Source of the DNA: Amoebophrya sp. A120
Lineage: Eukaryota > Protista > Dinoflagellata
Assembly: GCA_905178155.1 (NCBI GenBank)
Contig: CAJINV010000022.1
Span: 565,799 to 629,798 of the forward strand
Direction: 5' to 3'
Length of the DNA: 64,000 nt
A model generated the notes under the pieces. The model was not told the DNA's origin. It saw only the letters and a list, made by a program, of their open reading frames with translations, and ran no database searches. A program made the translations under genes and the position numbers. Position 1 is the first letter of the stretch, and each line of letters starts with the position of its first letter. This document shows positions 1-63,844 of the stretch, one piece after another.

Positions 1-3000
1 GATTGCCGGTGGAAATAATACGGAAGCACAAGAACCCGAGATTTTACTACCGTTGTCCGGTGCAGTGGGAGCGGCATCTAGCACCCCAAGCTCTTTATCG
101 TATATAAAAGTACACCCATACCATACCGGGGAACAAGTTGTATATGTCATGCAATTTTCAGAATAAAGACAAAAATGGAGCTCATGTTGTGTGATTTGAG
201 CGTGGCAAACTTTTGTTTATGTCCCCCTGAAGATCGGCTTCGCGTATTACAGAATCCGTTTTCATCTTGCATTCCAAAAAAGTGTACACCATAGTTGTCT
301 CTGCATGGCAGACTTTTTAGTTGTGACGCAAATTGCTTAGCGAAAGAAATAGATACTCTACCGGGCACAGCGCGCGTGGGTCTACATTTGTGTGTGATTC
401 CCTTTGCAGCCCGAGATCGGGATTGTCAATCCCAACAACCTCTGCTGGATGATCAGTTTGTCGCAGAGTTTGCTGTACATTCCCTCCTTGCACGAGAAGG
501 CCGAGGCGGAGTGCGCGCGGAGGGAGCAGGAGCAGCGAGGACCGGGTGCGAGTTCCAGTAGTAATTTTCAGCAACGCTCCCCGGAAGATAGCGACAAACT
601 CAGACAATGGTGCCAATTTTTCCGTGCCGTCGCTGGGTCGGGCGGTCGAGGACTATCAATTGCAAATATGTCTGGATCTGGAGGAATCCGAACTTTTGAT
701 GCTTCCTTCGGATTCTACAAAAATCTGTATTGCATGAACAGCAAGAGAGATCGAGTTTTTGCCACGGCGAGACGGCACTTCTCATGCAGGATAGGCATCA
801 GCAAGACCTCACAAAGTCTAGGATGCTAGGGCATCCATCACAGACATCTGGAGTCATGCAAAATGTGCATGACAAACGTTGCATTTTTCCTGACCAAAAC
901 ATATTTGCAGTTGATAAGGACGAAGCAACAACAATTTGTCTATTTACACCCGACAGCAAGGAGTAGAAGCGGTTCTACATTATGTTATGTGGAAGGCGAA
1001 TTGGCGCGAACTAAGGGACAGGAATTCTTGGAGACAGCAGGACCCGACGGAGGGGATGAGCAAACTGGTCGAAAATGTGCTACCTGGGAATTTCCAAAAC
1101 CTCTTCAACGTCGAAATCAAGGAGGAATTTTTCGCGATTGACCAGCAAGAGAACCCGATTCCGGACGAGAGCAAGGAAAAGAAAGACAATGCCGGCAATG
1201 CGTGGTTCCCCGCCTCCCAATTCATGATCGACTACAACGAGCAAAAACACACTGACATTCTCGGAGCTCTGCGAAACGCCTACTTCGAGCCTGATAAGGG
1301 AGATAGCAGCATATATTCTTACGACTATCAAAGGAAAGAAAATATTGGAATCAAGCAGGCGACAAAGCTTGCCTACAGAGCTCCGGCATACGTCGTAAAT
1401 GTTCTCTCAATTTGCTCCTGTGCCGGAGCAGAATCCTGCGCCGCACTGCATGACCATTGACTGCGCAATAAGTGTAGTTGACCGAACCAATTATAGTTGC
1501 TAATTGATATTGATTCTCAAAAATTTTGCCCCAATACTGCATTGGAACCCCACGACCCTCGGCCGGCCTGGTTGGAGGGTATGGAAATGCGGACGAAGCA
1601 GGTACCGGCGGAAGTTCAGATAATCACAGATAGCCAAGGACGAACACGAACGATTCAAGGCACCAGATATGGACTCCATCGGAAGGCCCACCTCCGGAAA
1701 CTGCCGGAAATTTTGCGGCTCGAGGTGAATCGTTTCACATACGAGAATAACGGAAGCACCCGCAAAAAGATGCATTATCTAGAGGCCCCCAGGCTTTTCT
1801 ACATCGACGGGGAGGCGAGCCGGAATGGTCCAAGTGGCATCCACACGGAGTTTCAGCGTGCGCGCTTGCGCAATCCGCACTGCCCCGGGGAGACAACAGC
1901 TTATACAGAGTGGGCAAGGCAAACTCGGAGACGGGGTATGGACCCCGTGTCCCAGTTGTACGAGCTACATGCGGTGATTTTGCACCACGGCCCCACCCCG
2001 AATTGCGGCCACTACACGGCTGTTGTGAACATCGGCACAGCCCAGCAATCTCCGCGGTGGCGACATTTCGACGACCAGCTGGTGACAGAAGTCCTGACGA
2101 CCTCCGTGGTAGGTCCTTCCGGTATTCTAGACAAATATCTGAGAGAACGAGCTGGGGAGGGCAAAACCATAAACATGCTGCTCTACAAGAAGAAGAAGCC
2201 CGACGCCGCATCGCCACCATATCAGGGCGCCGCACTGATCGGGCCTTCAGGGTCTGAAAATGGTGACCCGTTTGTCCCAATAACGCCCTCCTTAGCGACG
2301 TTGGCGCCGACTGCCTTGCCGGTAGATGCGAATACTTCGCAGCTACCGAGTGTAAGCTCAATCCGACCAGCAGACGCAAGTGAAATACGTCCCTCCTCGC
2401 CTGTTATTCGAACCGCATCGCCTCCATCAAGTAGCAGCAGTGGATCGACCGGGGCCGCAGGACCGGCAGCGTCTGCAAATGGGGGTGAGCATGACGAAGC
2501 AGAGGGATCTGCTGCAGTTCATCTCCAAGGAGCGCAACAGCCTTCTCGCCCGCTAGGAGGGGCAATGGCAAGTGGCGCATCAATACACGCGACAGGAGGG
2601 GAACTGGTAGTTGCAGCCCCGGATACTACGTTTGCGCCGGCGCAACCCGGCGTATTACTACAAACGCGGCAGGGTGACGCTGGAGCGGAAGCACGGACAC
2701 TACCGCCGCAGGGTGATGAGAATAGCGAACAGCAAATAGCCCAAGATAGCGCCGGTTCGTCTTCATCCGTGGGACAGGTAGTTGAACCGCCTGGCATTGT
2801 TGGCGCCACCGGCACAGCTGACGGCGGTCCACCGCCCGCATCAGCTGCTGACACATCAGAAACCGGCCCACCTGGAGCGCCGAAGCGCAGCCGCACTTCT
2901 TCGCCGGGCAGCAGCAGCGGCAGACAACAGCTAGAACCAAGTCCAGGAAGTGGTCCGAGGCAGAAGCGCACCTTGGAGTGGGGCGAGGCAGAAGACCACC

Positions 3001-3569
3001 TTGAGTGGGTAGGACCAGCACTAAATATCGTCAGTCCACTGACTGATGGAAGCAGAAGTACTGGGCCAGTGCCCGCGGTCCAACAAGCCCCGCAACTGCC
3101 CCCGGCAGAAGGTTCTACAACTTTACCCGACGCGCCACGTTTGGTACATTCACCTCCCACGAGCGGGAGAAGCGGAAACCCGGCTGGGGAGGCAAATCGT
3201 GGGCAGGCCCAGCCGCCAACAAGGGAAGTGTCCGCGGCCCCGGTTCCAGCCGCCGCTGAGCAAGCTGCTGGAGGGGAATCGGAAGTGAGAAACGCCGTCA
3301 CGGTTAGCTCTTCTGCAGCATTGGGTGGTCGTGCCTTCCCCGATGATGGTCTCTGTGACCTCGTGTCGGCGCAAGCCGATGTTCACTTTGTTCTCGGCGT
3401 TCACGGTCCAGAAGAAGACGGCATTCCTCGTGGGCCCTACTTCCCTGCTCCACGACGCTTCTTCACCGATGTCGGTGCGGTGTATCCTATCACGCGAAAA
3501 AGAACGGCTTTTGAATCCCATGCTAGTTTCAGGCAGAGTGCACGTGCAGGCAAAATGATGAGTCTGTGA
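1..3569 (+). CDS. Ubiquitin-specific protease (peptidase C19), multi-exon, 5' end outside window
   Basis: Cys box GIVNPNNLCWMISLSQSL (404 ORF), QQD box (936 ORF), His box YELHAVILHHG..GHYTA..WRHFDD (1497 ORF). Removing elements 96-399 and 654-916 (+1 direct repeat each) joins the frames. A probable AG acceptor lies at 1495-1496. Long low-complexity C-terminus; true 3' end uncertain. Confidence 0.85.
96..399. mobile_element. Degenerate TIR introner
   Basis: TATCG...TGATT ends, flanks CTCTT/CCCTT; removal joins SS-LQPEIG in frame. Confidence 0.6.
654..916. mobile_element. TIR introner family A
   Basis: TATCAATTGCAAATATGTCTGG...ACATATTTGCAGTTGATA, direct repeat AGGAC; removal joins ORF 404 to ORF 936. 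Confidence 0.9.
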
Positions 3570-3939: not shown

Positions 3940-4195
3940 TATTAAGGGTAAATATGTCTGGGTGGTCTGGGGCGCTTCGGGGTTTGTGATTTTGGTGCAG
4001 CTTTCGCAACGTGACAGGTTCTGAACAGAAATGTCGTCTTTGGGATTGCGTGGTCAAAGGTGTGTGCTGACCTTCGCTGCCTTTAATGCGATAAAGATTT
4101 TTGTATATGAAGACCAGACCGAGACCAGCTACCGCTAGCGCCACAAACCCGGGCTCTACTTCTAGACCCCAACATATTACGATTTGCAATGCATA
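3940..4195. mobile_element. Degenerate family A element
   Basis: AATATGTCTGGG at left end, TAGACCCCAACATATT...TGCAATGCATA at right end; direct repeat eroded. Confidence 0.5.
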
Positions 4196-4541
4196 GAGGA
4201 ATTGGCAGCAGATGCAGACGGTACTCGGAAAAGGGGTTGCGCAGAGTGTTTATTGCCCGCTGAGGAGTTTTTACAATCTCAACTGTTACACTTTTTTCTC
4301 ATTTTGATTGCATGAAGCGTTTGTGTGGGGCTGCGGTGACGCATTCATTTTTTGTCACTGGTACGCAGGACAAGTTCTAATGTCACAAAAAGCTGGAAGT
4401 CGTAGACCCTACCGCAAAATTGTAGATGCAAGACACAACTGGCGCCAGGTTCCGATTAGAGTGCAAATGCGTCACAAACTTTCAGCTTTATGTAATTTTT
4501 GGATAACAGTGAGAGCTTGTAAACGCCTGACCAGGTTATAG

Positions 4542-7146
4542 TGTTCGAGACTGCTTTCTATCAGAAAAGATCGAGGACTTCATGCTGGTATGCATTGCAA
4601 GTATGGCTGGGTCGGTAAGATAGAATGCAATTGCAAGCAACCTGCATATACAATTGTGCATTGCGAAGGAGAATGTGAATCTGTGATGCGCGAAGTGGGC
4701 TATGACAATGATTTCTGTATAGTGTGTTCCGCAAAAATGCGGTTTCTCCAACTCGTTGCGCAGGTTTCGTTGAAGTCTTCGGATACCGGAGGCCATTTCG
4801 CATAGCGAACGTGGCGTTTTTGCCAGTTTCCCGACCCAGACATATTTGTCCTGAATAGCCGGAGACTTTGCGCGCCCAGTTGGAGAAAATGCAATTGATG
4901 TTGTTGTAGGCAATGCAAAGAAGTATTGTACTCGTAGTGCTTGCACGACAAGCGCTTTCTGCGTGAAAGATGGCGTCTGTCATGTAGAGTCAAGGCCTTA
5001 GAAAAACAGATTGTAAGGACCAAATGTACGACTACAATACTTTTGCACAGGATAAGTTGTCGCACTTCGGCGCCGGCGTCTTTCGATTCTACATCGATTC
5101 TGCAAGACCAGAACGCCTTCGCTTTCACAGATCGCCGCAAGGGCAAAAAGTAGGTGACTGGGTGCAACAAAGGATCACGCAGGCAAAAAGCAACGTGGAA
5201 AATTTTTTGCGTTTAGGCGTATCCGTTGGCACCATGGCCAACCTGGAAGACCTACCGCTTGAATCCAGGACAGCCGAAGTTCGAGTGTTCCTGGAGGCAG
5301 CAAGTTTTAGGAAAATGCAGCCAAAAAGGCTTTTCACGCAGGCTGCAAATGGGAGTGCGACCAATGGTGTCTATGCAAGGCGAAACCGAATGCATCATCG
5401 TACAAGTAAAAATTGCAGCACATACATTTTTTCATGAGTGTGCTCAAAATAAAAGACGTCGCAGTTTGTCATGCAATGTTTTTCAGGTACTAAGTAGAAG
5501 TGCAAATGTGTCATGCACGAAGCTTGCAATTTTTACGAGCACGATATTCATATTTTTCGGAGCATACTGTTTATATACGCTCTCGGGAATTCGCAAATAG
5601 TGACATTGCACAAATGGACTTCGGAACGTATTTCGGCGAGCTCATGGGTAGTCGACCTGGTGGTGCCTTGCTCTGGCTGGTCGACCAGTGGATCGAAAGC
5701 GTGACTCCAGGCAACCGAAGTCGACGTCTAGTGCTCCGATCAGCTGCAGAAGCGCTCCGCCTTGCCGAATATTTGTCAGGCGAAAAACCGCCGGCGGAGC
5801 TGCAACGGCTCGCAGCAGAAGAGGTCGTGATTAAGTGGGTACGCTGGAGTACCACTCAGGCAAGACCTTATGTGCTACGCGAATTTAAGGACTTGTCGAA
5901 TCGCGATCGAGAATTCCTGTCTCAGTATTTTCGAGCCGCCCTGGAAACAGGAGGAGGTGGCGAACACTTTATTGGACGCTTTGCAAGACAACAGCATCGC
6001 ACTCGTGAAAATTGCACCGCATACAATTTTTTCTCAAAATCCGCTTGCCAGAATGAAAAAACGCATTTGTCATTATGGTAATGTAATTGTAATTCTGCAG
6101 CTAGGAATAGGGAACCGATACCGGAATCCACATTTTGCATGCATTGTTGCAATGGACACGGGGGCGATACCATTTTTTCGAAGGATACTATTCTGCCACG
6201 AGATCTGGCCGCGAAGCTGGAGCGTCTCGTCTATCCAAGTCTGGACGGGAGGCTCCGCCGGCTTGTAGAAGAGTGGATCGAAAGCGTGGTGCTGCCCTAC
6301 AACGAACGCCGGACAGAAGGACGTCTAGTACTCCAATCGGCCGAAGAGGCGCTTCGCTTTGTCACATACTTATCGAGATTCACTGGGGGCGAAGGGGAAC
6401 AAGAGGAACAAGAGGAACAAGAGGAACAAGAGGAACAAGAGGAACAAGAGGAACAAGAGGAAGAGGAAGACCGTGAGACGGAGCTGGCGGGCCTTCAGAC
6501 AGAGCTGCAAGAGCTGGCGGCAGAAGAGGCCGCAGGGGAGCAGCAGGGAAAAGAATCTGAAATTGGACTTAGTCTTTTTCCGGCTTCTCCGTTTCTTTTT
6601 CTCCAAGATGCAGATGGTCGCCCTTTTCCCCTAAACCAGAATGGCCTTCTCGCAAGTAAAGATGGCGAAGAAGATCGGCTAACCAGACGCACACCAGATG
6701 GCATAGTGCGCTTCTTCAGCAAGCGGGGCCCGCCGGGCCCGGGGGAGGACGCACGCCGGTACCTTCGATCGAGCTACCGGACGGTCCCGGAGGACGTCGT
6801 AGCCCCTGGGGTCAAGCGCCTAGTGGAAGTTCTCTTCGGCCGGGAACATCTCGAAAATAGCCCGCTGGAGATGCAATTGCGAGAGGAATTCGCATATTGT
6901 GAGGAAAACAAGTCCCGCCCCCTTTCTAGTATGCTCACAACGGATATCTGTGACAGTGATTCGCGTACGCAAATCAGCTTTGTCTTGCGAGATGGCGCCA
7001 TTAGATGTCTCCGCCGCATAATAGGGGCGATTTCTAAACCTAATGCTGTGAGGACTAGATCTAGAACAGAGCATGCGACTGGCGTCTTATTATACCGCTG
7101 CGTCGAACATTCGCATAGAATCTGCCTGCAGGCCCTTGCTCCGTGA
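4542..7146 (+). CDS. Unknown lineage-specific protein (family X, copy 1), multi-exon; may continue the upstream gene
   Basis: After element removal reads FLSEKIEDFMLETLRAQLEKMQL..SPQGQKVGDWVQQRI.., with two copies of VL(R/Q)SA(A/E)EALR; colinear with 16460-18663. Junction near 5970-6190 not resolved exactly. Confidence 0.6.
4589..4857. mobile_element. TIR introner family A (diverged)
   Basis: TATGCATTGCAAGTATGGCTGGGTCGG...CCCGACCCAGACATATTTG..ATA; flanks GCTGG/GCCGG; frame restored. Confidence 0.8.
4907..5054. mobile_element. TIR introner family B (diverged)
   Basis: AAGTATTGTACTCGTA...TACAATACTTTTGCACAGGATA; flanks TGTTG/AGTTG; frame restored. Confidence 0.75.
5372..5566. mobile_element. 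Degenerate family B introner
   Basis: TATGC...GAGCACGATA..GCATA; removal +5 nt joins NGV-YIRSREF in frame. Confidence 0.6.
6394..6456 (+). repeat. 9-bp coding tandem repeat (GAGGAACAA)n encoding EEQ
   Basis: Six perfect units plus one variant unit. Confidence 0.95.
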
Positions 7147-9660
7147 TTAATAAAGTTGACTTATGTACAACACGGATCGGGCACCACAAGTTTCGTTTTG
7201 ACTCTCGGGAAGGGGTGGATTTGTCGTTTTGATATCGCAGCAGAAATTGCGCCGAAGCTTTTGCGGATCAAAGAAGGGATCAAAAATCTTGGGATCGCAA
7301 AGCAGAGTCGTTCGCAAAGCAGAATCGTCGAGTTCCTGAGGGAGAAAAATGGTCGAGTTCGTCCTGAGGAAAAGAATTATACGCAAAGCAGAGTCGTTGA
7401 GCTGCTCCTGTTGCGGCTGCACACGTAGAGGCAGGGCGAGGCTTTGTATCTGATCCGCAGGAAGGTGCAGGCTCTGGATCGGGGTCTTCTTCCTCCGCCT
7501 CAGCATTTGATGTCGTTCCACGAGATCCACCCAGCGAGGCGTGGTAAACGACTGCTTCCGAGGGTCGCCAACTCGAACTGAAGGGAAAGGAAGCACGCGG
7601 GAACCTGGAGTTGCAAGCGTGGTTACAACCATGGAAAAAGAATTTCCTACGCTATAATTTCCCCCCCATGATCTGCAAAACTGATAAAAGACGTAACGGT
7701 CGACAATGCGACGCGTATTAGTCTCTCGGACGGCGGTCGCAGAACCTCACTGGGTCCGACCCCAAGCTACTTGCACGAGGCCACGCTTTATCCTTGAAGA
7801 CACTTTTTTCATTAGTATCTACACCCCCGATCTTTTACTATCGTCGAGGCGCTGGCGACATTGTTGAAGCTTCAACACTGTTTTCCCTCCAAACAGCTAC
7901 AAAGCTCTCTAAAGATGACACTCGCGATGTACAACCTGTGGTAGCAGCTACTGTGCGCCGGCGCTCCTGCGGGCAGTCGCTGTGTTGCGTGTCTATAGTT
8001 TCCCGACGTGCAGCACGTGCTGGTGATGCATGATCTACATTAGCATTTTCTGTAAATCAATATTACACCATAATAATTTTGATTGCTGAGCAGCCGCAGT
8101 ATTGTTTTCATCTTAGGAAAAAGACTTAGACATCACCTCCTTTTGCAACACAAATATTATAGCACTTTTTTGTCGTGCAAGAAGTTGCCGAAAGATCATT
8201 TCTCCCCGGGGCCGAAGTTGTCCTCGGTGCTCCGTGAATGTACGATTCTAGCGGGTGTATGTTTTCCTCTTTTTCTTCAAGAAATGGTTTAAGTTGTATA
8301 ATTTTGGAATAACAAAAATCAAACCTCAACCCACATTGATTTTTAAACGCCCCAGCATCGACAGTCGAGTGCGAGGCACTATCTGTAGCTCTGTTTGCCC
8401 AGCTGCAGCTCATATTTTGAAAACTTTTTGCAAATGGCGAAACACTTTTTTCTCGTTTTTCATAGCACTCGCTCGTAACAAATTTTTCGCCCCAAATCGC
8501 CAGAAGGATTGAATCAGCGCCAAGGGGTGGCGCAATAGTTTTCTTGTTGATCATCCCTGGTCAGGGACCATGACCATCGGATGTGAGACGGGCAAACTAA
8601 GCCAATACCAATCGCTCGACCGATATATTGATGAAGCGCAAAATCTATACCACTGCATACACGCGCGGTCACTACAAGTACGGGAAGATGAATGCGACGA
8701 CAAGATGAACCAAATGGAAAATGAGAAATCAATTGCACACGATAGAGGTTTGCGGACTTCTGGTTGTGTGCGACAGTTCAGCTACGATTCCGACAATTTT
8801 CTTGACTTGTTGCTATACTAAGATGCGTTCTACTGTTGTGAAGAGTTAATTTAGAAACTACAAGATCTGGTGTGCTGTTGTGATTTCTCCCATCGCACAG
8901 AAATCCGGTGTGTGTGTGACGACCTGATATTTTTCGGTGGACGCGCTGAGAGCTTTACGGCTCGGACTCTGGTGGAGATATATTCAATATTGGATCAACA
9001 TGAAGATTGTCCTCGTAGCATGAAGACGCAATGAAGGCACGCCATGAGTTCCTAATCGCGAAATCACAAAGCCAAAAGTTGTCGTCCAATTTTTCTATTA
9101 ACGTATAGGCGTTGCCAAAGCGGTAGAGATGATGAAAACGCGAGACGATTCAGATAAGTGGGAGAAAATTTTTTCTGACATTGAGATTGACCAAGGTTAA
9201 CTATACAAAATTTTCGTATGTGCGATCATCTGCGCATCCGTGCTCTACATCAAATTGGATAAAGGATGCTGAAAAGCGAAGTTTTTGACAGCGAGACCGC
9301 GAGAGGCGCAAATAGATTGTCTACCGTCGTATGGAAGATGGCGATCTCTATTTCTAATCATTGGTCGCGTGAAGATAGAAATATTCCGCATGGCAGCTCT
9401 GGATATCAGTGCAGCCACCGGCATTGTAGAGTGAATACACAGCAGGTACTTCTAGTAGGGAGCCAAAGTAATATAAAGTCTAATGTTTGTTCTGTAGGCC
9501 AATCCAAAGAGAACAAATAGCAAGATGTCGACGCCGACTAGGTTTCTCGGCGATGCAAGCAGCAGCCGCGTTGCCGGCATCGTCGATCTCTGTGCACCAG
9601 CACTGACACGAATTTGTAATGGCGGAGTAGTATGACAAAAGCCTCGAGAGCTTCATCGCC

Positions 9661-12600
9661 ATGGAGCAGCAAAATGAGGAAGCGTTGCTTCTTCCTTTTG
9701 GCGGGCGACCACCCGACGAAGGCTGTCGTGGTGATTCGGAAAAAGACTGCAGTAGCAAGCTGCCGCCACCGCACTCAGCCACACGTCAAAGAACAACGTC
9801 TTCGGAGGACGAGAGCCAACATCTCACTTCTCTTCTACAGGAACCAAATGGGAGGTGTTCTCGGGCCGCGGAAGAAGATGAAGACGAATTTCCGCGTCCC
9901 GCTGCACCAAAAGACGTCGACACAGGCAAACCTGGCGCGCGTCGAGCGGGACACCAGGCAGAGGAACAAATCGCGCCACCTTCCGCTGCGGGTCTACTTC
10001 AGCCGGCCAGCGCGGGCAATGGAACAAGAAGGGCTCCTCTTACGTCTAGTACCTCCCAGCAGCGCGACACAAAGACCACCTTCTCCAATATCGAAAAGAA
10101 AAACCGCGTTTTAGTGTAGGTGTCTTCAGCAGGTGACAGCACGACAAATTCGTTCTGCATGACAGTGCAGTCCTGTCATGCACGGCTAGCACGTGCAAAC
10201 ACGACGTAAGAAAAGAACACACCGTGGCTAGTAACCAGCATGACAGAGACAAGTGTAAACTGTTTTATATTTTCTGCATCGCAGACTTACACTTACAGAC
10301 CTTTTTTGTTCCATATCCATCCACGATCTTTCCTTCACGGTGGGCGAACTGCTCGGCCGCGGCGGCTTCGTATGGATTGCAAAAGCCTATCGCCCTAGTA
10401 GAGGAAATTGCATTACAAATTCGTTCAGAAGAAAAATGAAATTTGTAATGCTGAACTTGGAGTAAGAAACTAGATCTGTCATGTATAAATGCAATTCACG
10501 CAACTACTCGGTGGGCTTTTACCGAATGCATACTTTGCCGAGGTTTACAAGGCGACAAGGGGGGAGAAGAATTTCGCGCTCAAAATCGTCTCCGCCCAGA
10601 ACAAGCACAAGTTGCTGCAGTTCCAGCAAGAGGCGGTTCTGCTTGAAAACTTGACGAAAAAGGACAGACGGGGAAGAAAACATGTTGTCCACTGCTTCGG
10701 CTCCGAGTGTGACGTGGCGAGTTTGAAGATTCACATTTTGCTGGAATTCGCGGACTGTGACTTCGAAGCCTACCATCGGAGTTTCGTGACGAAAGTCACA
10801 TCGAATCCGCCCCCAACTGCGGCGGCCAACGGATTATTCGGTGCCAACGGTGCGGGAAGCAGAGACTCTTCCAGCTGTTCTAGAGGTTCAAGAAAAACGA
10901 AGTTCTTCATGCCTTTCAACATTATTCTCCATTGCGGGAAGCAGATGGCGGCTGCGGTTGCTTACATCCACAGCAAGAACATCGTGCATTTTGATTTGAA
11001 GCCGGCGAATTTTCTCATGTTTGAAAACAAGCAGAAAATCAAGCTGTCCGACTTCGGGCTAGCCAGGGAAGTGGAGGAAGATAAATCCCATATCAGCCGG
11101 TTTGGGCAGTGCGGCACGATATTATACATGGCTCCCGAGGCTTTTCATCAGGGAGAGCAATACGAAGCAAGCATGAAAATGAAGCCGGAAACGGATATTT
11201 GGTCCCTTGGGATCATACTGTACGCGATGATCTACGAAAAACCGCCGCACGCGTATTTGTTCAACCAGCCGGGGGGCGGAAACCGGGTGATGTTCTGCAT
11301 TGTGGATCCGTTGATGGAGATCCTATCCTGTGCAAAAGTATCGTACTCGTGCAAATGCAAGTCTTGCATTACAAATCTTGTTCTTAAAGGCAGATCAGCA
11401 TTTCAAATTTTATTTCTCATGCTGAGGAAATTTGTGATGCATTTATACGATTGCGATACCATGCTTTTGCAATCCATAAATCCAGTATCCGGACAAGTTC
11501 TGCGCCTTCACGCAGGACATTCTAGACGATACTCTCGCGGACTTCGAAGGACGAAGGCTCGAGCATTTGCTGTATTTGGTGCAAGTCTGTCTCGCGCGGG
11601 AAATCACAGAGAGGATCACTGCTTTTGATTTAGAAAAAGAGCTGGTCGGCCTGGAGATGGTGGGAGATGCGGTGTTAGCGTCTTCTTCTACTTCTTGCGG
11701 CACTTCTTCTTCCCTGCAGTCTGCCGCTTGCGACACTGGGGACCACCACCAGCTGTGGGAAGGCCACAATGTTGTCCTGTCTCGGGCCAGTGCCGACGCT
11801 ATAAAAATGCAGTTAATGCAAGATGGACCAGGCGATCTCGATCTGACTCAAAATCGAAATCGTGCATCCAATTCCACCGGCACCACAACCGCGGGTGATG
11901 GGTCATCTGCTCCTTCCGGAGGTTCCATCGACAACAGTAGGAGCACCGCCGCTTCTTTTTGTGCAAAATTAAACCTGGATAAAAACTTCAAGTTCCGCAC
12001 AGCATTAGTACGTCCGATCCCGGGAAGCACGGCGACGGTGTTGCATCGGAAACACATTCCGCAGGTACAAGTAGCCGTCCAACAAGTGGCTGGCTCTGGA
12101 TCATCTTCGGCAGGAATGAATGTTCATAGCGGGGTAATATCATCATCTGCCGTGGTGACACCTTCCACCAGCTTCAAAATTACATCGCTGGAAACCGCTC
12201 CAGCGCAGGAGCGGACGATTGCGCCGCCGGTGGTGGCGGTTGAAGAAAAGTTTTTGAATGGGAGGCTCGAGGAATCTTCCGCACAAGAAGAAACCACTAG
12301 GCAGCCACCAGAGCTGGACCTGGTGGAGCTTCTGCCGCAGGATATTACAGTGTCCCCGCTCGTCGGTGGTGGTGCACGCTCCGATGTAGATCCGAATTTC
12401 GACCTCGACGAGGAAGGGCTCGTTGGCAGAAAAAACGAATTGGACAACATTCCGACCACCGAAGTGGATGAGGCTTCTAAAGTTGATGTGCCAACACCAA
12501 CAGCTGCAACATTTTGGACCAGCGTCGCTGGACAAGTGCTTATCTCGGCCCTTATCCTGTCTATCGGCATAGGCGCAGCTGTATCTATCGGCATATTTGG

Positions 12601-15047
12601 AACAAACACCGAAGTTGTACGAGATGCAGGAGGTGCTTCGGGCGCCGCGAATCAGCAACTGAACTTTGGAGCGGGTTGGGGCAATGGTTTGTTTCCACGA
12701 CCTGCCGGAAACGGTATGGTTTTCGTCAAAAACGCGAATGATTTCGATGGTAATGAAACGACCAATACTGGTGGTAGTCCTGACGGAACATTAAACGGAA
12801 CGTCTAGTGGTCCTACAGAATCTCTGCAGCCCATACTACCGAACCCTCACACTGCGTTTTTGCCCCCGAGTCCGAGTGCTCTGAGCCCAGGAGTGGTGGT
12901 GTTCGGAGATGGAGGCGTAGGTGGCGGCGGAGATGGCGGGTTTGACGGTGGCGCTGGCGGTAGCGACGGTGGTGGTGGCCCGGCAACACGACCAAATACC
13001 CCCGTTGCCCCTCGTCCCGGTGGGAGTAATTATCCCACTGGAAATTATACCGGAGGTGGAACATCACCAGGCAGCTCTCCACCTCTCGTGCGTGGCAACC
13101 TGCCCGTCCCCGCAGCTGCCCCTGCAATGGTTGCTACGAGTTTAATATTGCCAGTAGGACCAAAAGCTGGCGCCGGCGGAATGATGCCACAGCCGAAACA
13201 ACGTCCAGCTCGTCCCACACCTTCCGTTCCGCCTTCCGCTCCAGCAGTTGTGCCGCCAGAAGTTAGCAGTACACCAGGAGACGGTCCGCGAGGAGTATCA
13301 CCGGCGGGCCAACCAGTCGTACCACCATTGCCCTATGACGGGTTGGTCACGGCGTCGTCGACGGGGAATACGACTAGCACCTCGCCGTCATCGCCAAGTA
13401 CCACGACGCTACCGACGGCTGCACAACGCCCTCCGAGTACTAGTACGCCGATGCAGTCAACAACCCAGAATGCTCCATTGCCAACAAGTACTCGAACTGC
13501 ATCGCCACCAAGAGGCGCGCAGGTGCAACAGGATCCACCGCCGGCATTTTTACCACAAGAGCTTGCTGCAAATGGAATAGCGAGTGAGCCGCCAAGACGA
13601 AGAGACCCAGAGGGAGTAGAGCGATCTGCCGTTCCTCAACCGACACGGGACGAAACTCTGACAGAGCCGAGTCGCAATGGAAATGGCCCGCCAGCCGGAG
13701 GAAGCACTGGCCCTAGTACCAATGCAGCCCTGCAAGAAGCGGACCCCCTGTGGCAGGGCGGCAACGAGGTGCGACCGGGAGGAGCCCCGGTCGGGACATC
13801 AGGGCCACAAGCTGAAGAGCGCCACACAGAAGTACCTCGCCAACTACTGGCGGCTCAGAATATCAGGAGCGGTACAACAGCACCGCCCCAGGTCGAAGCT
13901 CCGAGTTCAGCTCGAAGTCCGAGTGAGGGACGAGATTCCAATTCCCGTAGAACTACTGCGTTGGAGCAGCAGACGGTAGTAGAGCACGGCACTAATTCCC
14001 CACCGTCCACTATCCAAGAAAAAAACATTGTAGGTGTAACTTTTTTGGAGGAACAGCATTACAAATTTGTCTGGCATGACAGCAAAAACCTGTCATGCGC
14101 AGATAGTACGTGAAAACGCCCTTTATTGGACCCTACGACGCATGCCAAGCATGACAGACGCAATCATCTTGCAGGTTGCGCATCACAAATTTACACTAAC
14201 AACGTTTTTTGCTTGGATATCCACCAGCCAAGAACCCCCAGGAACTACAGCAAGAGGTCCTCCGCGCAGGCAGCTCACTATCAAATGCAAAAATGTCTGG
14301 GTCTGGAAGATTGCGAGATTTGTCATGCATATTTCGGATCACCATCACGCAAATGGCGTCTGATGCAGGCAAAAGCATCACAGGTTTTGAGCGCGCCTCG
14401 TGATGCCTGTCCCGCATGAGAAACTTCCTACTTGCGTGCCAAGAAATGGACAGCTTTTGGCGCTCATGCAACACAAATTTTTGTGTGTTCCAGAGTTTGC
14501 ATCACAAGTTCCAACCCTTCCAGACCCAGACACTTTTACATTTGATACTCACCTTGGCTCCGCAAAGTTTCGCCGTGCAGGTCGACCCGAATTCTGATAA
14601 TTCGCAGGCGGGCACAGTCTATCCTGAGTAAAAACGTACCCACACCAGAGTTGTAATGCAGATTTGCAAAGACAGGAAGATTTGTAATGCGCATCCCCGC
14701 CATGAGAGCCATTTCCAATCGTGTTTTGGAATTTGTGATGCTGTGAACAGGATGAGCAGATGAATCTGTGATGCGGCTGCACTTGCTAACCTGCACTACA
14801 CTGCATAGCGCAACTTGTCATGCGTGACTCACAAAGCTCCTAGGTTTGTGTTGCAAAATCCCCATCCTGACTCTGGTGTGGGTACGTTTTTGCTCAGGAT
14901 ACAGTCTCCACTGCGTTTATCGAGCCATCAGGCCCAACATCTCCAAGGTCGGCTTGTTCCTTCGCAGCCCCGCCGCGGCCGACTGTTGAAAGTGCTGGTA
15001 ACCGGCGCCGTGTGCTGACAGTGAGTTTACGCCATGAGCAAATATAG
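9661..15047 (+). CDS. Mps1/TTK-like protein kinase with a transmembrane helix and P/T/S/G-rich tail, multi-exon
   Basis: Spliced model gives GELLGRGGFAEVYK, ALK, HFDLKPANFL, DFG, GTILYMAPE, DIWSLG, CL.R..ERIT. Hydrophobic VLISALILSIGIGAAVSIGIFG at about 12536-12601. Six introners removed in frame. A possible GT donor at 15021 may extend the gene. Confidence 0.85.
10089..10315. mobile_element. TIR introner family D (diverged)
   Basis: TAT...ATA ends, flanks TCCAA/TCCAT; frame restored. Confidence 0.75.
10371..10532. mobile_element. TIR introner family B in kinase G-loop
   Basis: Flanks CTTCG/CTTTG; removal restores GRGGF-AEVYK. Confidence 0.85.
11324..11478. mobile_element. TIR introner family B
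   Basis: TATCCTGTGCAAAAGTATCGTACTC...CTTTTGCAATCCATA; flanks GATCC/AATCC; joins to ORF 11567. Confidence 0.9.
14011..14219. mobile_element. TIR introner family D
   Basis: TATCCAAGAAAAAA...TTTTTTGCTTGGATA; perfect TCCAC repeat. Confidence 0.9.
14279..14547. mobile_element. TIR introner family A
   Basis: About 31-bp TIR TATCAAATGCAAAAATGTCTGGGTCTGGAAG; perfect CTCAC repeat. Confidence 0.95.
14620..14901. mobile_element. TIR introner family C
   Basis: TIR TATCCTGAGTAAAAACGTACCCACACCAGAGT; perfect CAGTC repeat. Confidence 0.95.
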
Positions 15048-16459: not shown

Positions 16460-18663
16460 TTGAAAAAAAACGCTTCTCGCGGAAGGTGGTGGACGAACCA
16501 AAACTCAGCGCTTTTTCAAGCGATACCGCAACGCGATCTAGTAAGGCGCGCTATAGCGATTCCAGCCTTCCGCGCAGAAGTCGGTAATGCCATCGGGAAT
16601 TGGCACCAGATGCGAACCGCGCTCGGAGAAGAAGTTGCGAAGGAGTTGAAACGCTCGTTTCTAGCAGAAGAAATGGACGACTTCATGGCGGAACTGCTGC
16701 GCGAGCAGCTGCACAAAATGCAAGTTCTGCAGCTGTCAGAAGGTAGTACCAGTTTAATCGGCTCTGGTGTAGTCGCTCAAGGGGCAGCTGGGACGCAAAT
16801 TACCGTTCCCGCGGAAGTGTACTATGATTCTGCACGTGCACGTTACAGATTATTATACGATATTACGGAAGAAAGCGGCCGTCGTCGCTGTCACACGACC
16901 ACATCGCCGGAAGGTCAGAAGTATGAACTGCAAAAGTATCGTACTCGTATAAATGCATGACAAATTCCCTCAGCATGAGAAATAAATTTTGTAATGCGGA
17001 TTTACCTTGAGACAAAAATTTGTAATGCATGATTGCAATACGAGTACGATACTTTTTCACAGGATAAGAAGATAGCCGAGTGGGTGGAAGAAAAGATCAA
17101 GCAGGCAAGAGAGAAAATAGCCGAGGCGAGAGCAGTATCAAATGCAAATCTGTCTGGGTCTGGAAGAACGAAGCAACTTGTCATGCTAAATCTGAATCAT
17201 GTGGAAATCTGTGTTGCGTGATTGCCAAAAGCTGTCTACTTTTGACCTGATCGAGAGGCAGTTTCTCATGCAGGATAGGCATGAGAGAACTCTCACAGAA
17301 TCTGTCATGCGATGTTCTACATACCAGACAGCATGGGTCATGGAAAATCTGCATGACAAGTCTACTGGCATTCTCCCAGACCCAGACACTTTTGCAGTTC
17401 ATAAGCAGCAGGGGAAATTCAGAACCCTGCTGAAGTACTGGCTTTCCTGGCCGCCGGAGCGGGTCGTGCGACAAGTGCCGGCAGGACAAGCCTCGACAAT
17501 CGGGCAGAGGAAGGAGGTGACGTAGAATTTCACCCTGAATCCGGAGCCCCCACCCCAGCAGCTTCTGATGTGCTGCTCTACGTGCCGCCGGTAGTTCTAT
17601 CTGAGAGGCTCGCAGGGCTGCTAGAGCAATTTGCCCAAGCAGAGATCATGCGAGACGATCGAGGCGTTCTACTGGGCGGAAGAAATTATGTGCTCCAATC
17701 AGCGGAAGAGTCCCTCCGCTTCGCGGAATACCTGTCTGGAACTGCACGGCCGCCAGAGGTGCAACGGGCCGGAGAAGTTGTTGACGCAAAGGCACGGAGG
17801 GACGGACAAGAACACCTGAATGAAGGTGGTATCAAACTAGAATTAAGGTGCCCGAGCCTGAGAATCTGATTAGGCATCAAAGCCGTGCTGCAAATCTATC
17901 TCTGCGGCAGTATGTATCAGCATCGTGATTGTTTTCGGCTTAGAATCTGAAACCACGTAGATTTGCGCACGATGAACGAGGTTGCAATCATTCCAAAAAA
18001 CTACTGCATTCAATTTTCTCCAATGCATCAAAACTGTTCATTTTCTTGGGGAGTACGGCACCTTTTTTCATTTCTATACCCTGGACCTCCTTCTACCGTT
18101 TCGCGCAAGTCAGCCTCCTACCCGGCCTCAGGCACCTCTTGAGCCTTCTCTTCTACTCTGGGACGAACAATGATCTCACGATGCTTGGGCATCAAAGAAC
18201 ATCAAGGGATGTAAAATTACGAGCAGAATTCGAAGCACAATGGGCACCACAACTATTGCGCATGATTTACACACTCGATAAGGGCGGTGGGAGGTTTCCG
18301 TGGACCAACATCGCACCGAAGAATAATCGTCATGCTCCTGCACGATCGAGCGGAATATTAACGGGGGCACGACAAGCAGGAGGTTATTCATCTAGCCAGA
18401 GAGGTGACCACACCTCGGGATCAGGATCTACTTCGTCGGGGTCATCTTGTTCGTCGTCCTCTGGCCGACCTGTACCCCGAGCTGCGGCGGATCATGGTTG
18501 TTCCGGAGGTGATCATGCAGAAGTGAGCCGCCCCGCCCCACACGCGGATGAACAAGACGCAAGCCACGCTTCAGGATCACGAAGCGAATTTTCACAAGGA
18601 AATCCAAACCACGAGCATCGCCCGAGGAACTACGAAGCGGTGTTTGTAGAGGAGGTTGATTGA
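16460..18663 (+). CDS. Unknown protein family X, copy 2, multi-exon
   Basis: Removing 16922-17066, 17136-17403 and 17830-18078 (+5 nt each) gives one open frame colinear with copy 1 (FLAEEMDDFM, SPEGQKIAEWV, VLQSAEESLRFAEYLSG, KLRAEF). Confidence 0.7.
16922..17066. mobile_element. TIR introner family B
   Basis: Perfect AGAAG repeat; frame restored. Confidence 0.95.
17136..17403. mobile_element. TIR introner family A
   Basis: Perfect AGCAG repeat; frame restored. Confidence 0.95.
17830..18078. mobile_element. Degenerate TIR introner
   Basis: TATC..AAGGTGCC / GGCACCTT..TATA inverted ends; direct repeat eroded but +5 removal is in frame. Confidence 0.55.
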
Positions 18664-24960: not shown

Positions 24961-26226
24961 ATTTGGACATGAAACGAGTTCGAGAGAATAGACTTGTATA
25001 AACTGAGTTCAACATAACTCGCCTGGCGTTGCAGGTGCTGCGACCATGCACGACGAAGTACTTACAACTTTATTTGACGACGACACAATTATTCTGTATG
25101 ATGGCGACACTTCTTTCAGAAAGCTGCCCATAGTACTTTTTTCTACCGAAGGAAGCGGAAACTAGTTTCTTCTGTTCATCCTTGGGGCTTCGTCACATAC
25201 TGCATGTTCTACTTGGCAGCACGCATAGGCTCAGGCTGGACCGGGGCATTACGAAGCACCTCCAGCGTGGGTGTGACCGTCTCCGTCATGATCATGACGA
25301 GCTTTACATATTACCCCATTTATTTTCCCGTACGGATGAAAAAACTTCTTTGCATGCACACCAGTATATCGTTTTCGTTCTTACATAAGAGGACCACGTA
25401 AGTCTAGCCTGACGCTTTTCAAAAACCCTTGAGTCAAGAAGAAGTGTGCACAACTTCTCCTCCGCCGGAGTCGAAGGAGTAGCGACTTCCAAGTGCTGCC
25501 ACCGAGAAATGTACAATTACAGCGACCATACACATAGAAAAAGCATTCCCAACTTGCGCACGATGCGACGTCCCATTTCGGATATCATTTTACTGACTTG
25601 AGGTCAAGGTATATAAAAGTGTTCCACGAATTTGATGGCAGCTGTTTTCTGCAGCAGCAGTGTCACTGCAACTTCTTCTGCACGCTCCGTCGAGATTCGA
25701 CGGAAGCAGAAGTCGGCTAGGCATCCTACCCCTAGGTTGTATCCCGACTACTAGGGACATGCGCTGCGCAACTTGCCATCTCCGAAAGTTCTGTTGTCTT
25801 CTCGATTACCTACACAAGAATGTTCCGGCGGTGTGGCACAATCAAAAAGAAGCCCCCGGCGACGGCTTGTTGCGCTGCTTTTGCTCTGTTCCAGAAGCGT
25901 TATATGAAATTTCCGTGATTATATGAAGAGGTGGACGAGGTACCGCAGTGGCTTTCTCGCTGTGCGTATCAAATGTCAGATAAAAGCTGGGGTTGATTTT
26001 GAAAGGATGGAGCCGAGCAAGAATGTTCTTAGCACAATGCAGAATGGCAAATTTCGATAAACCTAAAGATCTGAAATTCGAGTAAACCCAGAAGCAATGT
26101 TGCAAGGAAATTCCAAACTACATAAAGAACTGTTTGTGTAGTTGGTAGGTGGGAACATGTATTGACCGAAATTCGACATAGAATCTGAGCCCAAAACAAG
26201 AAGTAGATAAAAACACATTCAAGACC

Positions 26227-30953: not shown

Positions 30954-31831
30954 AGTAGATAGGAACTGTTACGGAAGGGGATTTTTAGTCGTAGATGCTG
31001 AGCAGGACAATGAGCAGGTTAGCTTTTTATTTCTATAGGCCAAGACCTTGAACTTCAACTTCTACATGAGGCGTAGTTGTGCATTAGCCAGATTTGAAAA
31101 AGTGCAAGCGTACTAGCGAGAGTGAAAATGTCGAATCGTAGAAAAGCGTAGCGAGACCGAAGGTAACATGAGAGAAGTTTTTCGAGGCACCACAGATATT
31201 GGTGTCAACGCAGAGCAAGCGTACTTGCGATGAGACTGTCATGACCAAAGTTGTCAATGATCAGAGGATTTTTGGAAAAAGGAAAAAGGAAAACCCAACA
31301 TTGCTGCGATTGTCGAAGAACTACACGTTCCGTGAGGGATGATGAAGATCAGAGTAAAAGAACAGCAAAATGCTGCGTGAATGATCATCAACAAAAAATG
31401 ACTGTGCGTGGAAGAAAAGTTCTTGTGGGAAGATCATCTGAACAAGCAGACTAGTGACGATCGGAGTCAAGAAACTGTGATTTCATTGCCCACGACATCC
31501 CACGAGGACGAAGTGTACTTCTGACTCAGGCTCATGCTCAAATTGTCGTCCTATCGGACGTCGATTAGTCCCACACGGGTTCTTGATGATCACCAGGACT
31601 TCTGAAGGTTTTTGTTTTTTCATCCTCGCGACGTAGACGCACTGTACCAACTATACTTGAAGACTTTTGCGTTTCGCTTTATATATCATACAGCAAACGG
31701 CCGGAATATTTTTGAAATCCAATTTCCCGTCGCAGTCGCACCTGCGCAGTAGTACACAAAATCAACATTTCGTTTGGATGACAAACTACAACCTAAGATC
31801 TACTACTGGACGAAAAATTTTTGTCACAAAA

Positions 31832-45900: not shown

Positions 45901-46187
45901 CCCAAAGATATCTGCGTCGTAGTTTCAAAGTCCAACCGATGCTATTTGCAGTGGATAGGGTAACGGCTTACAGGCCAGCGAACGTTCGGAGAGGTTGGCT
46001 TAGATTCCGCGACGCAAGTGGACGGCAGCTCCAGTTCTGGTATGGCGTGCAAGGAGGGACACGCGGATGGGGCACCGAGGATCCCGCCTGGAGGCATGCC
46101 ATCCACTTCGGGCTTCGTGGGCCAGGACCCTTTGTGCCGCAATTGCATCGCAAATATTGGCAAGAAGATGAAGTGTGGAATTTGTGA
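42906..46187 (+). CDS. MVALLKKRMPG family protein, copy B
   Basis: Colinear with copy A (RGQKLHFATFLNM, SESECQKTC, GWLRFRD); different introner positions; 3' end may be truncated. Confidence 0.65.
43564..43771. mobile_element. TIR introner family D (opposite orientation to 14011-14219)
   Basis: Perfect GTCCT repeat; interior is the reverse complement of the 14011 copy. Confidence 0.93.
44257..44470. mobile_element. TIR introner (other family; related to fragment 61592-61694)
   Basis: TATGG...CCCATA ends; flanks GTTTG/ATTTG. Confidence 0.8.
44519..44774. mobile_element. TIR introner family A
   Basis: Perfect GTGCG repeat. Confidence 0.95.
45076..45340. mobile_element. TIR introner family A
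   Basis: Flanks CTTCG/CGTCG. Confidence 0.9.
45644..45957. mobile_element. Diverged family A-like introner
   Basis: TATCCATTGCAAAT / ATTTGCAGTGGATA; +5 removal gives a frame colinear with copy A. Confidence 0.75.
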
Positions 46188-50144: not shown

Positions 50145-50146
50145 AT

Positions 50147-61975: not shown

Positions 61976-63844
61976 TTGCAGCTGCTTGACTCCTCCCAAT
62001 TTTCCCACGATTCTGCAGTGGACGATGACGACCCTCGGCCGACCTGGTTGGACGGTGTGGAGACGCGGACCAGGCAGGTGCATTATGCTGTGCAAAAGTA
62101 TCGTACTCTTATTGCAATCATGCATTACAAATCTTTTCGTTATAGGGAAATCCGCATTACAAATTTTAGTTCTCATGCTGAGAAAATTTGTAATGCATTT
62201 ATACGAGTACGATACTTTTGCAGTTCATATGCATGCGCAGCGGACAATCCGAGATAGCACAGGACAACCTCGGACTATTCGCTACACCGAGTACGGCCTG
62301 CACCGCAAAGTTTACCTCCGCAAACTGCCCGAAATTTTGCCGCTCCACGTGAACCGCTTCACATACCAGACTGACGGAACAAGCATCACCAGGAAAAAAA
62401 TGCAGTATCTGGACATTCCCTTTCTATTCTACATCGACGCCCAGGCGAGAAGAAATGGTGGTCAAAGCGGCATCAACACGGAGTTTGAACGTATCAACTG
62501 TAAAAATGTCTGGGTCTGGAAGATTCTGACACTTGTCATGCACGTTTTGCATGAGCCCTGATGTCTGTGATACATGCCCTAGCATCACAGATTTTTTGAG
62601 AGCTTCCTGTTGCCTATTCCGCATGACAAATGCCCTCTCCGCGTAGCAAAAATTACGTTCCTTTTGGTACTCATGCAATACAGATTTTTCTGGAATGCAA
62701 ATGCAGCATCACAAGTTGCAATCTTCCAGACCCAGACACTTTTGCACTTGATAGAACGTGCGCGAGTGCGAAATCCCAAATCCCCTGAGGACGCACGCGA
62801 CTACAGAGATATCAAATGCAAAAATGTCTGGGTCTGGAAAATTGCCAGGTTTGTCATGCATATTTTGAATGACCCATGATGTCTGTGATGCATGCCCTAG
62901 CATCACAGATTTTTAGAGGACTTTGCGATGCCTCCACCGCATGAGAAATGCCCTCTCCACGTAGCACAAACTAGAGTCCTTTTGCTGGTCATGCAATACA
63001 AATTCTTCTAGAATCCAGAGACAGCATTACAAGTTTAGAATCTTCCAGACCCAGACATTTTTACGTTTGATAAGAGAGTGGGAAAGGCAAGTGCAGGAAC
63101 GGGGCATGGAAGCTGTGTCGCAGGCGTACGAATATCCTCTGCAAAAGTATCGCACTCGTATAAATGCGAATCTTGCATTACAAATCTTTTTATCAAGGCA
63201 AATCCGCATGACACATTCCATTTCTCATGCTAAGGAAATCTGTATTGCAATTAATACTAGTACGACACTTTTGCAATGCATAACGAACTGCATGCGGTGA
63301 TTTTGCACCACGGTCCAAGGGCCAATGCCGGCCACTACACGGCGGTTGTGAACATCGGTACGCAGCAATCTCCGCAGTGGCGACATTTCGACGACGGGCG
63401 TGTGATAGTCATCCCGACTACTACTGGCTCTTTGTATCAAATGCAAATATTTGCTTGGGTGTCGAAGAAGATTGCAAGGCTTGTATTATTCAAGTTTTCC
63501 ATGCCCAATGAGGTTGAGGTCTGGAAAAATGCGGGGCGTAGCATGACAGATTCTGTGCGGTCTTTCTATTTGTCATGCCTGTTCTGCATGACAAACTCCT
63601 TCTAACCTTGAGCAAAATTAATAGGGCAACTCTTAGGTGTCATGCACAGGATGCATCACAAGTTAGCGCCGTTTTTTGTTTATTTCCAGACCCAGACAAA
63701 TGCGCAGTGCATACTTTGAGCGGATACCTGAAAGAACGAAACGCGGAGGGAAAGACTGTGTGCATGCTTCTGTACAAAAAGCCCAGGCATAGCACTGGTT
63801 TCGTGCTCTCTGGGCCAAAACGGGTCGCACAGCAGCGACGGTGA
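61976..63844 (+). CDS. USP paralogue, C-terminal part, with 5 introners
   Basis: Spliced model colinear with ORF 1497 (DPRPTWLDG, YGLHRKVYLRKLPEIL, YELHAVILHHG..GHYTA..WRHFDD, MLLYKK); ends GFVLSGPKRVAQQRR*. Confidence 0.85.
62084..62229. mobile_element. TIR introner family B
   Basis: Perfect TGCAT repeat; empty site in the first USP. Confidence 0.95.
62492..62753. mobile_element. TIR introner family A
   Basis: Perfect GAACG repeat; empty site in the first USP. Confidence 0.95.
62810..63072. mobile_element. TIR introner family A
   Basis: Perfect AGAGA repeat; empty site in the first USP. Confidence 0.95.
63133..63282. mobile_element. TIR introner family B
   Basis: Perfect ACGAA repeat; restores YE-LHAVILH. 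Confidence 0.95.
63435..63713. mobile_element. TIR introner family A
   Basis: Perfect CTTTG repeat; frame restored. Confidence 0.9.

Follow-up and report, generated by a model that had tools for sequence, protein, structure and literature searches.

How are dozens of short, transposon-like elements, whose borders offer no GT-AG pair, removed from the transcripts of the genes they interrupt, and which letters set the cuts? A 64,000-nucleotide (nt) stretch of Amoebophrya sp. A120 (contig CAJINV010000022.1, positions 565,799 to 629,798; hereafter the window) raises this question. We catalogued 48 inverted-repeat elements with TAT...ATA termini between positions 654 and 63713 (Table 1). They are 143–349 nt long, occupy 17.5% of the window and were obtained by profile-based pairing of ends followed by curation, an initial scan for TAT...ATA pairs with matching flanks having given 21 strict matches. 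After end trimming, five multi-copy families (13, 11, 3, 2 and 2 copies) and 17 singletons can be distinguished, in agreement with the original prediction, made from the sequence, of about 45–50 such elements in at least five terminal-inverted-repeat (TIR) families with 5-bp flanking repeats. The termini are TAT...ATA in 45 of the 48; the exceptions, one at the 5' end and two at the 3' end, are marked in Table 1. The flanking 5-mers agree at 209 of 240 letters (10,000 shuffles: mean 62, maximum 90) and are perfect repeats in 26 elements, a statistic that is partly circular because the ends were fixed partly by the repeat and by RNA joints. For the same reason, an independent test of the duplication was taken from 149 related loci (L001–L149; 823 kb with overlaps, from one metagenome record set), in which at least 155 stretches matched the family A end. 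There, the ends of 403 further elements were paired blind to the flanking repeat, and the flank match was 0.90 at 5 bp versus 0.24–0.30 at lengths 2–4 and 6–10, with 293 perfect repeats. Paralogous sites could be aligned for ten window elements, and all ten are empty with one 5-mer (about three of these alignments have small gaps nearby). The elements are short, non-coding, multicopy and TIR-bearing, like miniature inverted-repeat transposable elements (MITEs), and their anatomy is that of a non-autonomous TIR DNA transposon with a 5-bp target-site duplication (TSD), which they likely are.

The window elements most likely represent the introner system of Farhat et al. (2021; PMC7789003). The accessible text of that paper describes A120 introners as having inverted repeats that begin with TAT, continue with seven letters of lower conservation and then show three or more A, direct repeats of 3–5 nt across the exon/intron border (5 bp in the legend of Fig. 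S19), many families, a mean length of 240 nt for non-canonical introns, RNA-seq-supported removal and no transposase found. Our elements match this description in terminal motif, repeats, size, removal, families and lack of an internal transposase, and the system is therefore already known. The original prediction was right that inverted-repeat non-canonical introns had been reported in Amoebophrya, but it understated how much had been published, namely the TAT terminus, the 5-bp repeats and the RNA-seq support, besides a Ginger-like family with a 5-bp TSD and TA termini in PMC12130899. The same text describes repeat length and splice position as variable, with no clear dinucleotide signature; our elements have a single repeat length (5), are free in orientation and appear to share one register, with three letters protected. 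We did not find the latter three features in the open literature searched; figures 3 and S19–S25 of PMC7789003 may show part of them.

Removal was followed in two contig sets, X1 and X4, compared with positions 26001–46000. Both are putatively RNA, a guess supported by the co-removal of a canonical intron. Fourteen of the 15 joints examined belong to one gene, that for the replication factor C (RFC) small subunit, and occur in both sets. Thirteen of them skip an element plus 5 nt, exactly and in both X1 and X4, and one skips a GT-AG intron, which serves as an internal control. The spliced RFC contig (1973 nt) carries an open frame of 550 amino acids (aa), which requires removal of the canonical intron besides that of the elements, and opposite orientations of family B are removed within this single transcript. 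Contig pieces add five elements: at 33266 the skip is 258 nt (253 + 5), and the four elements between 34288 and 35270 together account for 822 nt, equal to the 822 predicted. Removal of element plus 5 nt is thus supported at 18 elements and in every family tested in the transcript-type contigs, which bears out the proposal of one rule for all families; among the joints listed, none within genes contradicts it. Twenty-five skips had been predicted beforehand, of which 14 were confirmed, none was contradicted and 11 lay outside the listed joints or were one-sided. Nine of the 13 RFC joints were among these predictions; the remaining four concern older elements recognised via the joints, and follow the same rule.

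The elements are thus removed together with 5 nt, in either orientation and without GT-AG. As had been noted for the cases first checked, no placement of an element-plus-5 cut gives GT-AG on the + strand (0 of 48); on the opposite strand, only 28545 offers one. As to the further claim that such removal restores the reading frame in nearly every case tested, in silico removal yields, besides the RFC frame, one of 1360 aa in a kinase gene with six elements, one of 791 aa that also spans six, and one of 331 aa with two. For single elements the test is weak: both sides are open for at least 60 aa in 32 of 48 elements at +5, compared with 12–16 of 48 at out-of-frame lengths, and +5 is not discriminated from +8. 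In the remaining genes, the frames break off after element removal, probably through further introns or decay. The fifteenth joint, in an X1 contig (depth 45.8, shorter side 28 nt), links 26786, an ATA end, to 45075, the G-TAT start of an element of another family, with one letter between them. This junction is absent from the window and related-loci DNA examined; adjacent copies elsewhere, a chimera, or read-through of a lariat or circle are candidate sources, and we do not use it as evidence for a lariat.

Perfect repeats let the joint slide, so that only decayed repeats fix where the cut falls. At 26989, where the copies are AAGAG and ACGCA, the contig retains letters 1–4 of the first copy and letter 5 of the second. 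The registers allowed at the 13 RFC joints intersect at 4 only, and one-sided contig pieces give register 3–4 at 32584 (from 32766) and 4–5 at 34288 (from 34286). The informative constraints (exactly 4; 4–5, three times; 3–4; 3–5; 2–5) come from different families and all admit 4. They argue strongly for a single register, with the cuts falling 1 nt ahead of TAT and 4 nt beyond ATA, and hence for an intron of the form N-TAT...ATA-NNNN, in which the first letter and the last two are target-derived. There are 35 distinct intron end pairs among the 48 elements, the second letter being T throughout. Among the splice pairs tabulated in PMC7789003 (Table S4), the nine commonest non-canonical ones of A120 begin with NT and nine pairs of A25 with TT, and this T at +2 fits what register 4 predicts. 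Stop-codon and codon-likelihood tests on 54 mismatched repeats did not discriminate between registers. A phase-0 excess of insertions at register 4 in L001–L149 (106/49/48) does not count towards the register, because the window lacks it (14/11/14) and a palindromic target preference would explain it.

Three other accounts of these joints were weighed. The original prediction had the direct repeat, with terminal pairing, set the cut, exactly one repeat copy being removed; such a process would be guided by the repeat or resemble template switching. The skip of element plus 5 nt in all 18 supported cases and the similarity that most repeats still show agree with this. However, removal is exact where the copies match at two of five letters (26989) or three of five (28918, 30394), so the repeat is not the guide, and the product at 26989 is a mosaic of both copies. 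Mismatches pile up at all five repeat positions, a canonical intron is removed in the same contig, and one would not expect template switching by reverse transcriptase (RT) to strip all 14 introns from the contig that dominates in two samples. The repeat as guide is thereby largely refuted, and we regard such a process as quite improbable. As the cut removes exactly five flanking letters, the mRNA regains its pre-insertion sequence at any site, which most likely makes the repeat a by-product of insertion. It is also improbable that the length rule holds while the register varies by element or family. According to the text of PMC7789003, the position of the splice sites with respect to the hairpin varies, the TSD lengths called automatically in PMC12130899 run from 2 to 5, and most joints here can slide, but every informative constraint shares register 4 across families, and T stands at +2 in each of the top splice pairs published. 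Apparent variability of the register is explained by the slidable junctions. Finally, the RNA status of X1 and X4 being guessed, the joined forms might be DNA, either empty alleles of other strains or products of DNA-level excision. This is highly improbable, given that the same contig also lacks the canonical GT-AG intron, that its displayed exon pieces are otherwise identical in sequence, and that the derived letters come from both repeat copies. These points argue for spliced RNA.

The letters that matter were sought in the variation of the ends, numbered here from the intron borders at register 4 (TAT at +2 to +4, ATA at -7 to -5). The end motif consists of TAT, variable positions 4–10 and A at positions 11–13; the last is seen in about 97% of 309 oriented elements, a value that is partly circular because detection used the motif. 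These 309 are drawn from the 403, the other 94 being unorientable or having fewer than three of five repeat matches. Terminal positions 1–3 were examined in a separate element search blind to TAT, from which 13 of 241 elements were dropped for having fewer than three repeat matches. Without TAT being required, 321 elements yielded 22 terminal variants, a rate far lower than the 3.9% of mismatches at each position of the repeats. With three further cases there are 25, of which 24 can be oriented by the coding strand (L004:64-182 was dropped as a false pairing). By position these are +2: 0, +3: 1, +4: 10, -5: 5, -6: 6 and -7: 2, and one of the two at -7 admits a GT-AG placement of unchanged length. 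Variants at +4, -5 and -6 thus outnumber those at +2, +3 and -7 by 21 to 3 (p = 0.0003), or by 15 to 3 once the six cases from which the idea arose are set aside (p = 0.008). Each terminal pair has one variable and one protected partner, the protected ones being +2, +3 and -7. A transition bias, seen in the A11–13 run (17 versus 7), would push the +3/-7 asymmetry the opposite way.

Nineteen of the 24 oriented variants break the TAT:ATA pair, and structure prediction pairs all three TAT:ATA letters (P > 0.5) in 11 of the 18 RNA-supported elements. At least eight end-to-end pairs are expected in 17 of the 18, compared with 3.5 in the canonical intron control; the exception, 27633, is removed in the RNA contigs without predicted end pairing. 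The earlier proposal that terminal pairing sets the sites is thus doubtful for the terminal letters, which appear to be read singly and not as pairs. The whole hairpin probably still matters. In each of the five largest clusters the elements lie either way round with respect to transcription (71:82, 17:24, 19:11, 12:12 and 9:10), and both ends are alike in composition, so the signals needed must all lie in the symmetric ends. In L003:2873-3123, the first A of ATA is lost and an AGGTG repeat allows a GT-AG cut of the same length, possibly a step towards a canonical intron. Within the elements, TGTNATGC repeats (motif TGT[ACG][AT]TGC) occur at 14.6 per kb, compared with 1.0 per kb in the exon flanks; at least two copies are present in 319 of 357 elements, in forward sense close to the 5' end and inverted close to the 3' end. 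Judged from its sequence distribution, this motif is a candidate for a putative binding site common to all families. It is also found at 7 per kb in the long terminal repeat (LTR) of the window's Gypsy-type element (49490-50330).

We give about even chances to the reading that a relaxed U2-type spliceosome removes the elements, recognising U+2 and A+3 and, as the branch nucleotide, an A at -7. The long end-to-end hairpin would join the ends in place of U1/U2AF, perhaps with help from a protein that recognises TAT-N7-AAA or the internal TGTNATGC repeats. In this scheme U+2 and A+3 would make up a minimal 5' splice site, branching would occur at the first A of ATA (-7), and distance would select the 3' site. 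Either orientation would supply both signals because both ends bear the same word. In yeast, U+2 is paired by U6 A51 (10.1101/212811). A branch at -7 is feasible, since the branch motif lies one base from the 3' triplet in most Yarrowia introns (PMC13309789). According to the text of PMC7789003, A120 keeps nearly all spliceosomal proteins together with U2, U4, U5 and U6, while U1 was not detected. A bolder form of this reading, which we offer tentatively, is that the palindromic transposon end is a complete, orientation-free splicing cassette, with U1, G+1 and the 3' AG dropped and the hairpin measuring both cuts. The offsets of 1 and 4 nt add up to the 5-bp duplication of the transposase, so that any exon insertion would at once be a scar-free intron.

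Several observations weigh against the spliceosomal reading or the register and letters on which it is built. A -7 A-to-G variant (L056:8399-8670) has no GT-AG alternative and lies in a frame that is clean and looks conserved, L026 has a +3 variant within a clean frame, and an unorientable variant at L003:1359, possibly a +2 change, was left out of the count. The variant strands are model calls, and only one variant (30122) is RNA-confirmed. The exact register is set by one joint (26989) and its upper bound by that joint and one one-sided piece; the joints examined are 15 of 43, in the region 26001–46000, and come from contigs, which hide minor isoforms. A YTRAY-like branch word occurs in just 124 of 357 elements and without orientation preference, and there is thus no clear sign of classical U2 pairing. 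Docking of the yeast 3' site uses the pairs G-1:G+1 and A-2:branch A, with about nine bases placed between branch and 3' site (10.1101/212811), and the element introns have neither pair. From the canonical U2 signature GT/GC...AG only the T at +2 is kept, +1, -2 and -1 being free. In repeats with mismatches there is no trend towards G at +1 or a 3' AG, GT-AG options show no enrichment (16 of 309 on the sense strand and 11 of 309 on the antisense), and among 291 de novo canonical introns (noisy calls) the strict subset of nine has no A at -7. The role of A+3 in U6 pairing is taken from general background, and the spliceosome step itself (lariat, branch and dependence) is what we infer.

The main competitor is a non-spliceosomal machinery of the type suspected in Euglena, which would read the terminal hairpin and a short motif, cut at offsets of 1 and 4 nt, ligate the exons and perhaps release a circle. 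The nonconventional introns of Euglena follow a fixed-offset code, with non-spliceosomal factors suspected (PMC12501133), and resemble ours in MITE-like origin, terminal hairpin, slidable repeats, lack of GT-AG and fixed offsets (PMC12501133, PMC11282704); hairpin circularisation is thought to be involved there (PMC12501133). The symmetric composition and free orientation of our ends, the end-to-end pairing predicted in 17 of 18 elements, the missing branch consensus and the undetected U1 (PMC7789003) would all suit such a machinery. On the other hand, the single protected partner of each terminal pair falls at positions that a spliceosome reads, 27633 is removed without predicted end pairing, and most variants break the terminal pair, although a protein-based reader could be asymmetric too. 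The Euglena code as given in the text of PMC12501133 (5'-N3CDG...CH'G N5-6|R, with a purine following the cut), which was defined by mutagenesis in an unrelated lineage, differs from what we see, with TAT at +2 and ATA ending at -5. We consider a Euglena-type machinery possible, though less likely than a relaxed spliceosome. The non-canonical introns of Fritillaria and the introners of Micromonas/Aureococcus are likewise MITE-derived, with TIR and TSD (PMC11282704, PMC7789003), and those of Fritillaria are described as removed by an adapted spliceosome (PMC11282704). As described in these texts, both retain preferred dinucleotides at their ends (AG-AC/AG-AT or GT/GC-AG) and take over one splice site from the target, whereas in our elements +1, -1 and -2 may be any letter.

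More than 60% of the introns in two Amoebophrya strains are non-canonical, and PMC7789003 treats their removal as an open question. One register and three protected letters turn this question into point predictions on branch position, intron product and reporter changes. The register rule is also a simple annotation aid for tens of thousands of introns whose borders aligners slide to GT/AG look-alikes. If the relaxed-spliceosome reading is true, the conserved G+1/AG docking of exon ligation would be dispensable wholesale, and the flooding of exons by a transposon at no cost to protein sequence would be explained.

The elements would be mobilised in trans, and the likely agent is an integrase-type (Ginger-like) transposase. 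Such an enzyme is suggested by the 5-bp duplication and by an end that differs from TGT by one transition. Ginger2/Tdd elements have TIRs and an integrase-type transposase, TDD-4 and TDD-5 generate 5-bp TSDs, and their termini are TGT (PMC2836005). Our elements differ in their TAT termini, in showing no strong target preference and in the lack of a transposase gene in the DNA examined; TGT occurs at 5 of 642 element ends, and by their termini they are not typical Ginger elements, although the duplication is within the 4 or 5 bp of that group. PMC12130899 (Gozashti et al. 2025) describes 58 A120 introner families, among the rows listed mostly TIR DNA of unknown type with TSDs of 2–5. Family 38 is there classed as TIR DNA/Ginger, with a 5-bp TSD, TA/TA termini, a length of about 810 bp and open reading frames with LTR-integrase-like homology. 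It is like the window elements in TSD and TA termini by description only, and here no coding copy was seen. Long TAT...ATA copies encoding a transposase, for which a search had been suggested, did not turn up: no coding copy was found in the window or in the 823 kb of L001–L149, and two integrase queries from the window's LTR elements gave no integrase-like match in L001–L149. Three long candidates for autonomous copies proved to be an element with a poly-A-tailed insert, an element with an unrelated insert and a chance span across separate elements, none encoding a transposase. In L068:11024-11995, a family A element carries 700 nt of inserted sequence that is poly-A-tailed and shows a direct repeat of about 20 bp, resembling a non-LTR retro-insertion. 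L060:10329-10608 shows an 8-bp rather than a 5-bp duplication, and is in frame with 5 or 8 extra letters removed. The family A end had no match in viral contigs.

Every gene read in the window is on the + strand, and no Rfam families were found there. The elements are unevenly distributed, with none inside either of the two LTR retrotransposons. The Copia-type one has a 488-aa frame without a Pfam match and a 1140-aa frame with integrase and RVT_2 matches. The first 1.7 kb or so of the Gypsy-type one is repeated at about 59910-61590, up to a single N at 61591, likely as a tandem copy or an assembly gap. A TAT-type end lies at 49446, just upstream of it.

Table 1. Features of the window. Letters A (~260 nt), B (~150 nt), C (~208 nt), D (~285 nt) and E (~321 nt) denote element families by size. 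Flanks are the 5-mers on the 5' and 3' sides; "skipped" is the length missing from contigs.
Feature	Positions	Flanks	Remarks
Element A	654..916	AGGAC/AGGAC	
Element, singleton	3940..4195	GGGGG/GAGGA	less certain
Element, singleton	4251..4540	GTGTT/GTGTT	empty paralogous site (gapped alignment)
Element, singleton	4589..4857	GCTGG/GCCGG	empty paralogous site (gapped alignment)
Element	4907..5054	TGTTG/AGTTG	TAG start
Element, singleton	6895..7234	TCGCA/TCGCA	
Element, singleton	10089..10315	TCCAA/TCCAT	within protein kinase gene
Element B	10371..10532	CTTCG/CTTTG	within kinase gene
Element B	11324..11478	GATCC/AATCC	
Element C	14011..14219	TCCAC/TCCAC	
Element A	14279..14547	CTCAC/CTCAC	
Element D	14620..14901	CAGTC/CAGTC	
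Element B	16922..17066	AGAAG/AGAAG	example in the original prediction; empty paralogous site
Element A	17136..17403	AGCAG/AGCAG	
RFC small subunit gene	26156..31247		+ strand; 13 element introns and 1 canonical, all missing from the contig
Element, RFC	26360..26548	AGCGA/AGCGA	194 nt skipped, X1 and X4
Element B, RFC	26635..26786	ACAGA/ACACA	157 nt skipped; register 4 or 5
Element, RFC	26989..27241	AAGAG/ACGCA	2/5; 258 nt skipped; register 4 exactly; intron 26988-27245, GT..GC
GT-AG intron, RFC	27297..27471		+ strand; canonical; internal control
Element, RFC	27633..27822	CCAGT/TCAGT	195 nt skipped; end pairing not predicted
Element E, RFC	27893..28213	TCAAG/TCAAG	326 nt skipped
Element B, RFC	28298..28455	CATGG/TATGG	163 nt skipped
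Element B, RFC	28545..28711	CGACC/CGACC	172 nt skipped
Element, RFC	28918..29266	CACGA/CAGAA	3/5; 354 nt skipped; register 4 or 5
Element A, RFC	29344..29636	CTTGT/CCTGT	298 nt skipped
Element A, RFC	29770..30032	ACAGC/ACAGC	268 nt skipped
Element B, reversed, RFC	30122..30271	CCAAC/CCAAC	ACA end; 155 nt skipped
Element, RFC	30394..30640	TAAAC/TGTAC	3/5; 252 nt skipped; register 3-5
Element B, RFC	30691..30837	TCGAC/TCGAC	152 nt skipped
Element	32584..32762	TTGCT/TTCCG	contig piece begins 32766; register 3-4, one side only
Element A	33266..33518	TACAA/TACAA	258 nt skipped between neighbouring contig pieces
Element	34288..34430	GAGAG/GACCG	contig piece ends 34286 (register 4-5); removal by sum
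Element B	34480..34629	TCGAC/TCGAC	removal by sum
Element D	34668..34952	GGGGG/GGGGA	removal by sum
Element	35047..35270	CTGAT/CTGAT	removal by sum
Element D	36864..37168	TCCGC/ACCGC	empty paralogous site
Element A	37341..37609	CTGCT/CTGCT	
Element	37827..38150	CTCTC/CCCTC	ATG end; empty paralogous site
Element E	38414..38735	GTTGC/GTTTC	
Element A	39162..39415	ATGCA/ATGCA	
Element C	43564..43771	GTCCT/GTCCT	
Element	44257..44470	GTTTG/ATTTG	
Element A	44519..44774	GTGCG/GTGCG	
Element A	45076..45340	CTTCG/CGTCG	empty paralogous site
Element	45644..45957	AGCCA/GGGTA	2/5
Element B	62084..62229	TGCAT/TGCAT	empty paralogous site
Element A	62492..62753	GAACG/GAACG	empty paralogous site
Element A	62810..63072	AGAGA/AGAGA	empty paralogous site
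Element B	63133..63282	ACGAA/ACGAA	empty paralogous site
Element A	63435..63713	CTTTG/CTTTG	
Degenerate candidate	96-355	CTCTT/CTCTA	uncertain; outside the 48
Degenerate candidates	5372-5566, 5970-6187, 16181-16525		uncertain; outside the 48
Ty1/Copia-type LTR retrotransposon	about 18660-24960		- strand; two LTR copies; no TAT...ATA element inside
Ty3/Gypsy-type element	about 49490-61590		+ strand; 1150-aa and 2032-aa frames (RT, RNase H, integrase)
Paralogous set 1	430-3570 and 61900-63800		ubiquitin carboxyl-terminal hydrolase domain
Paralogous set 2	36300-40100, 42900-46200, about 49150-49450		
Paralogous set 3	about 3900-7400 and 16400-17900		

Decayed or lone element ends whose partner is unclear lie at 44803, 46130-46240, 48250 and 61600-61694. 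The three paralogous gene sets share about 70–78% DNA identity and differ in their element insertions.

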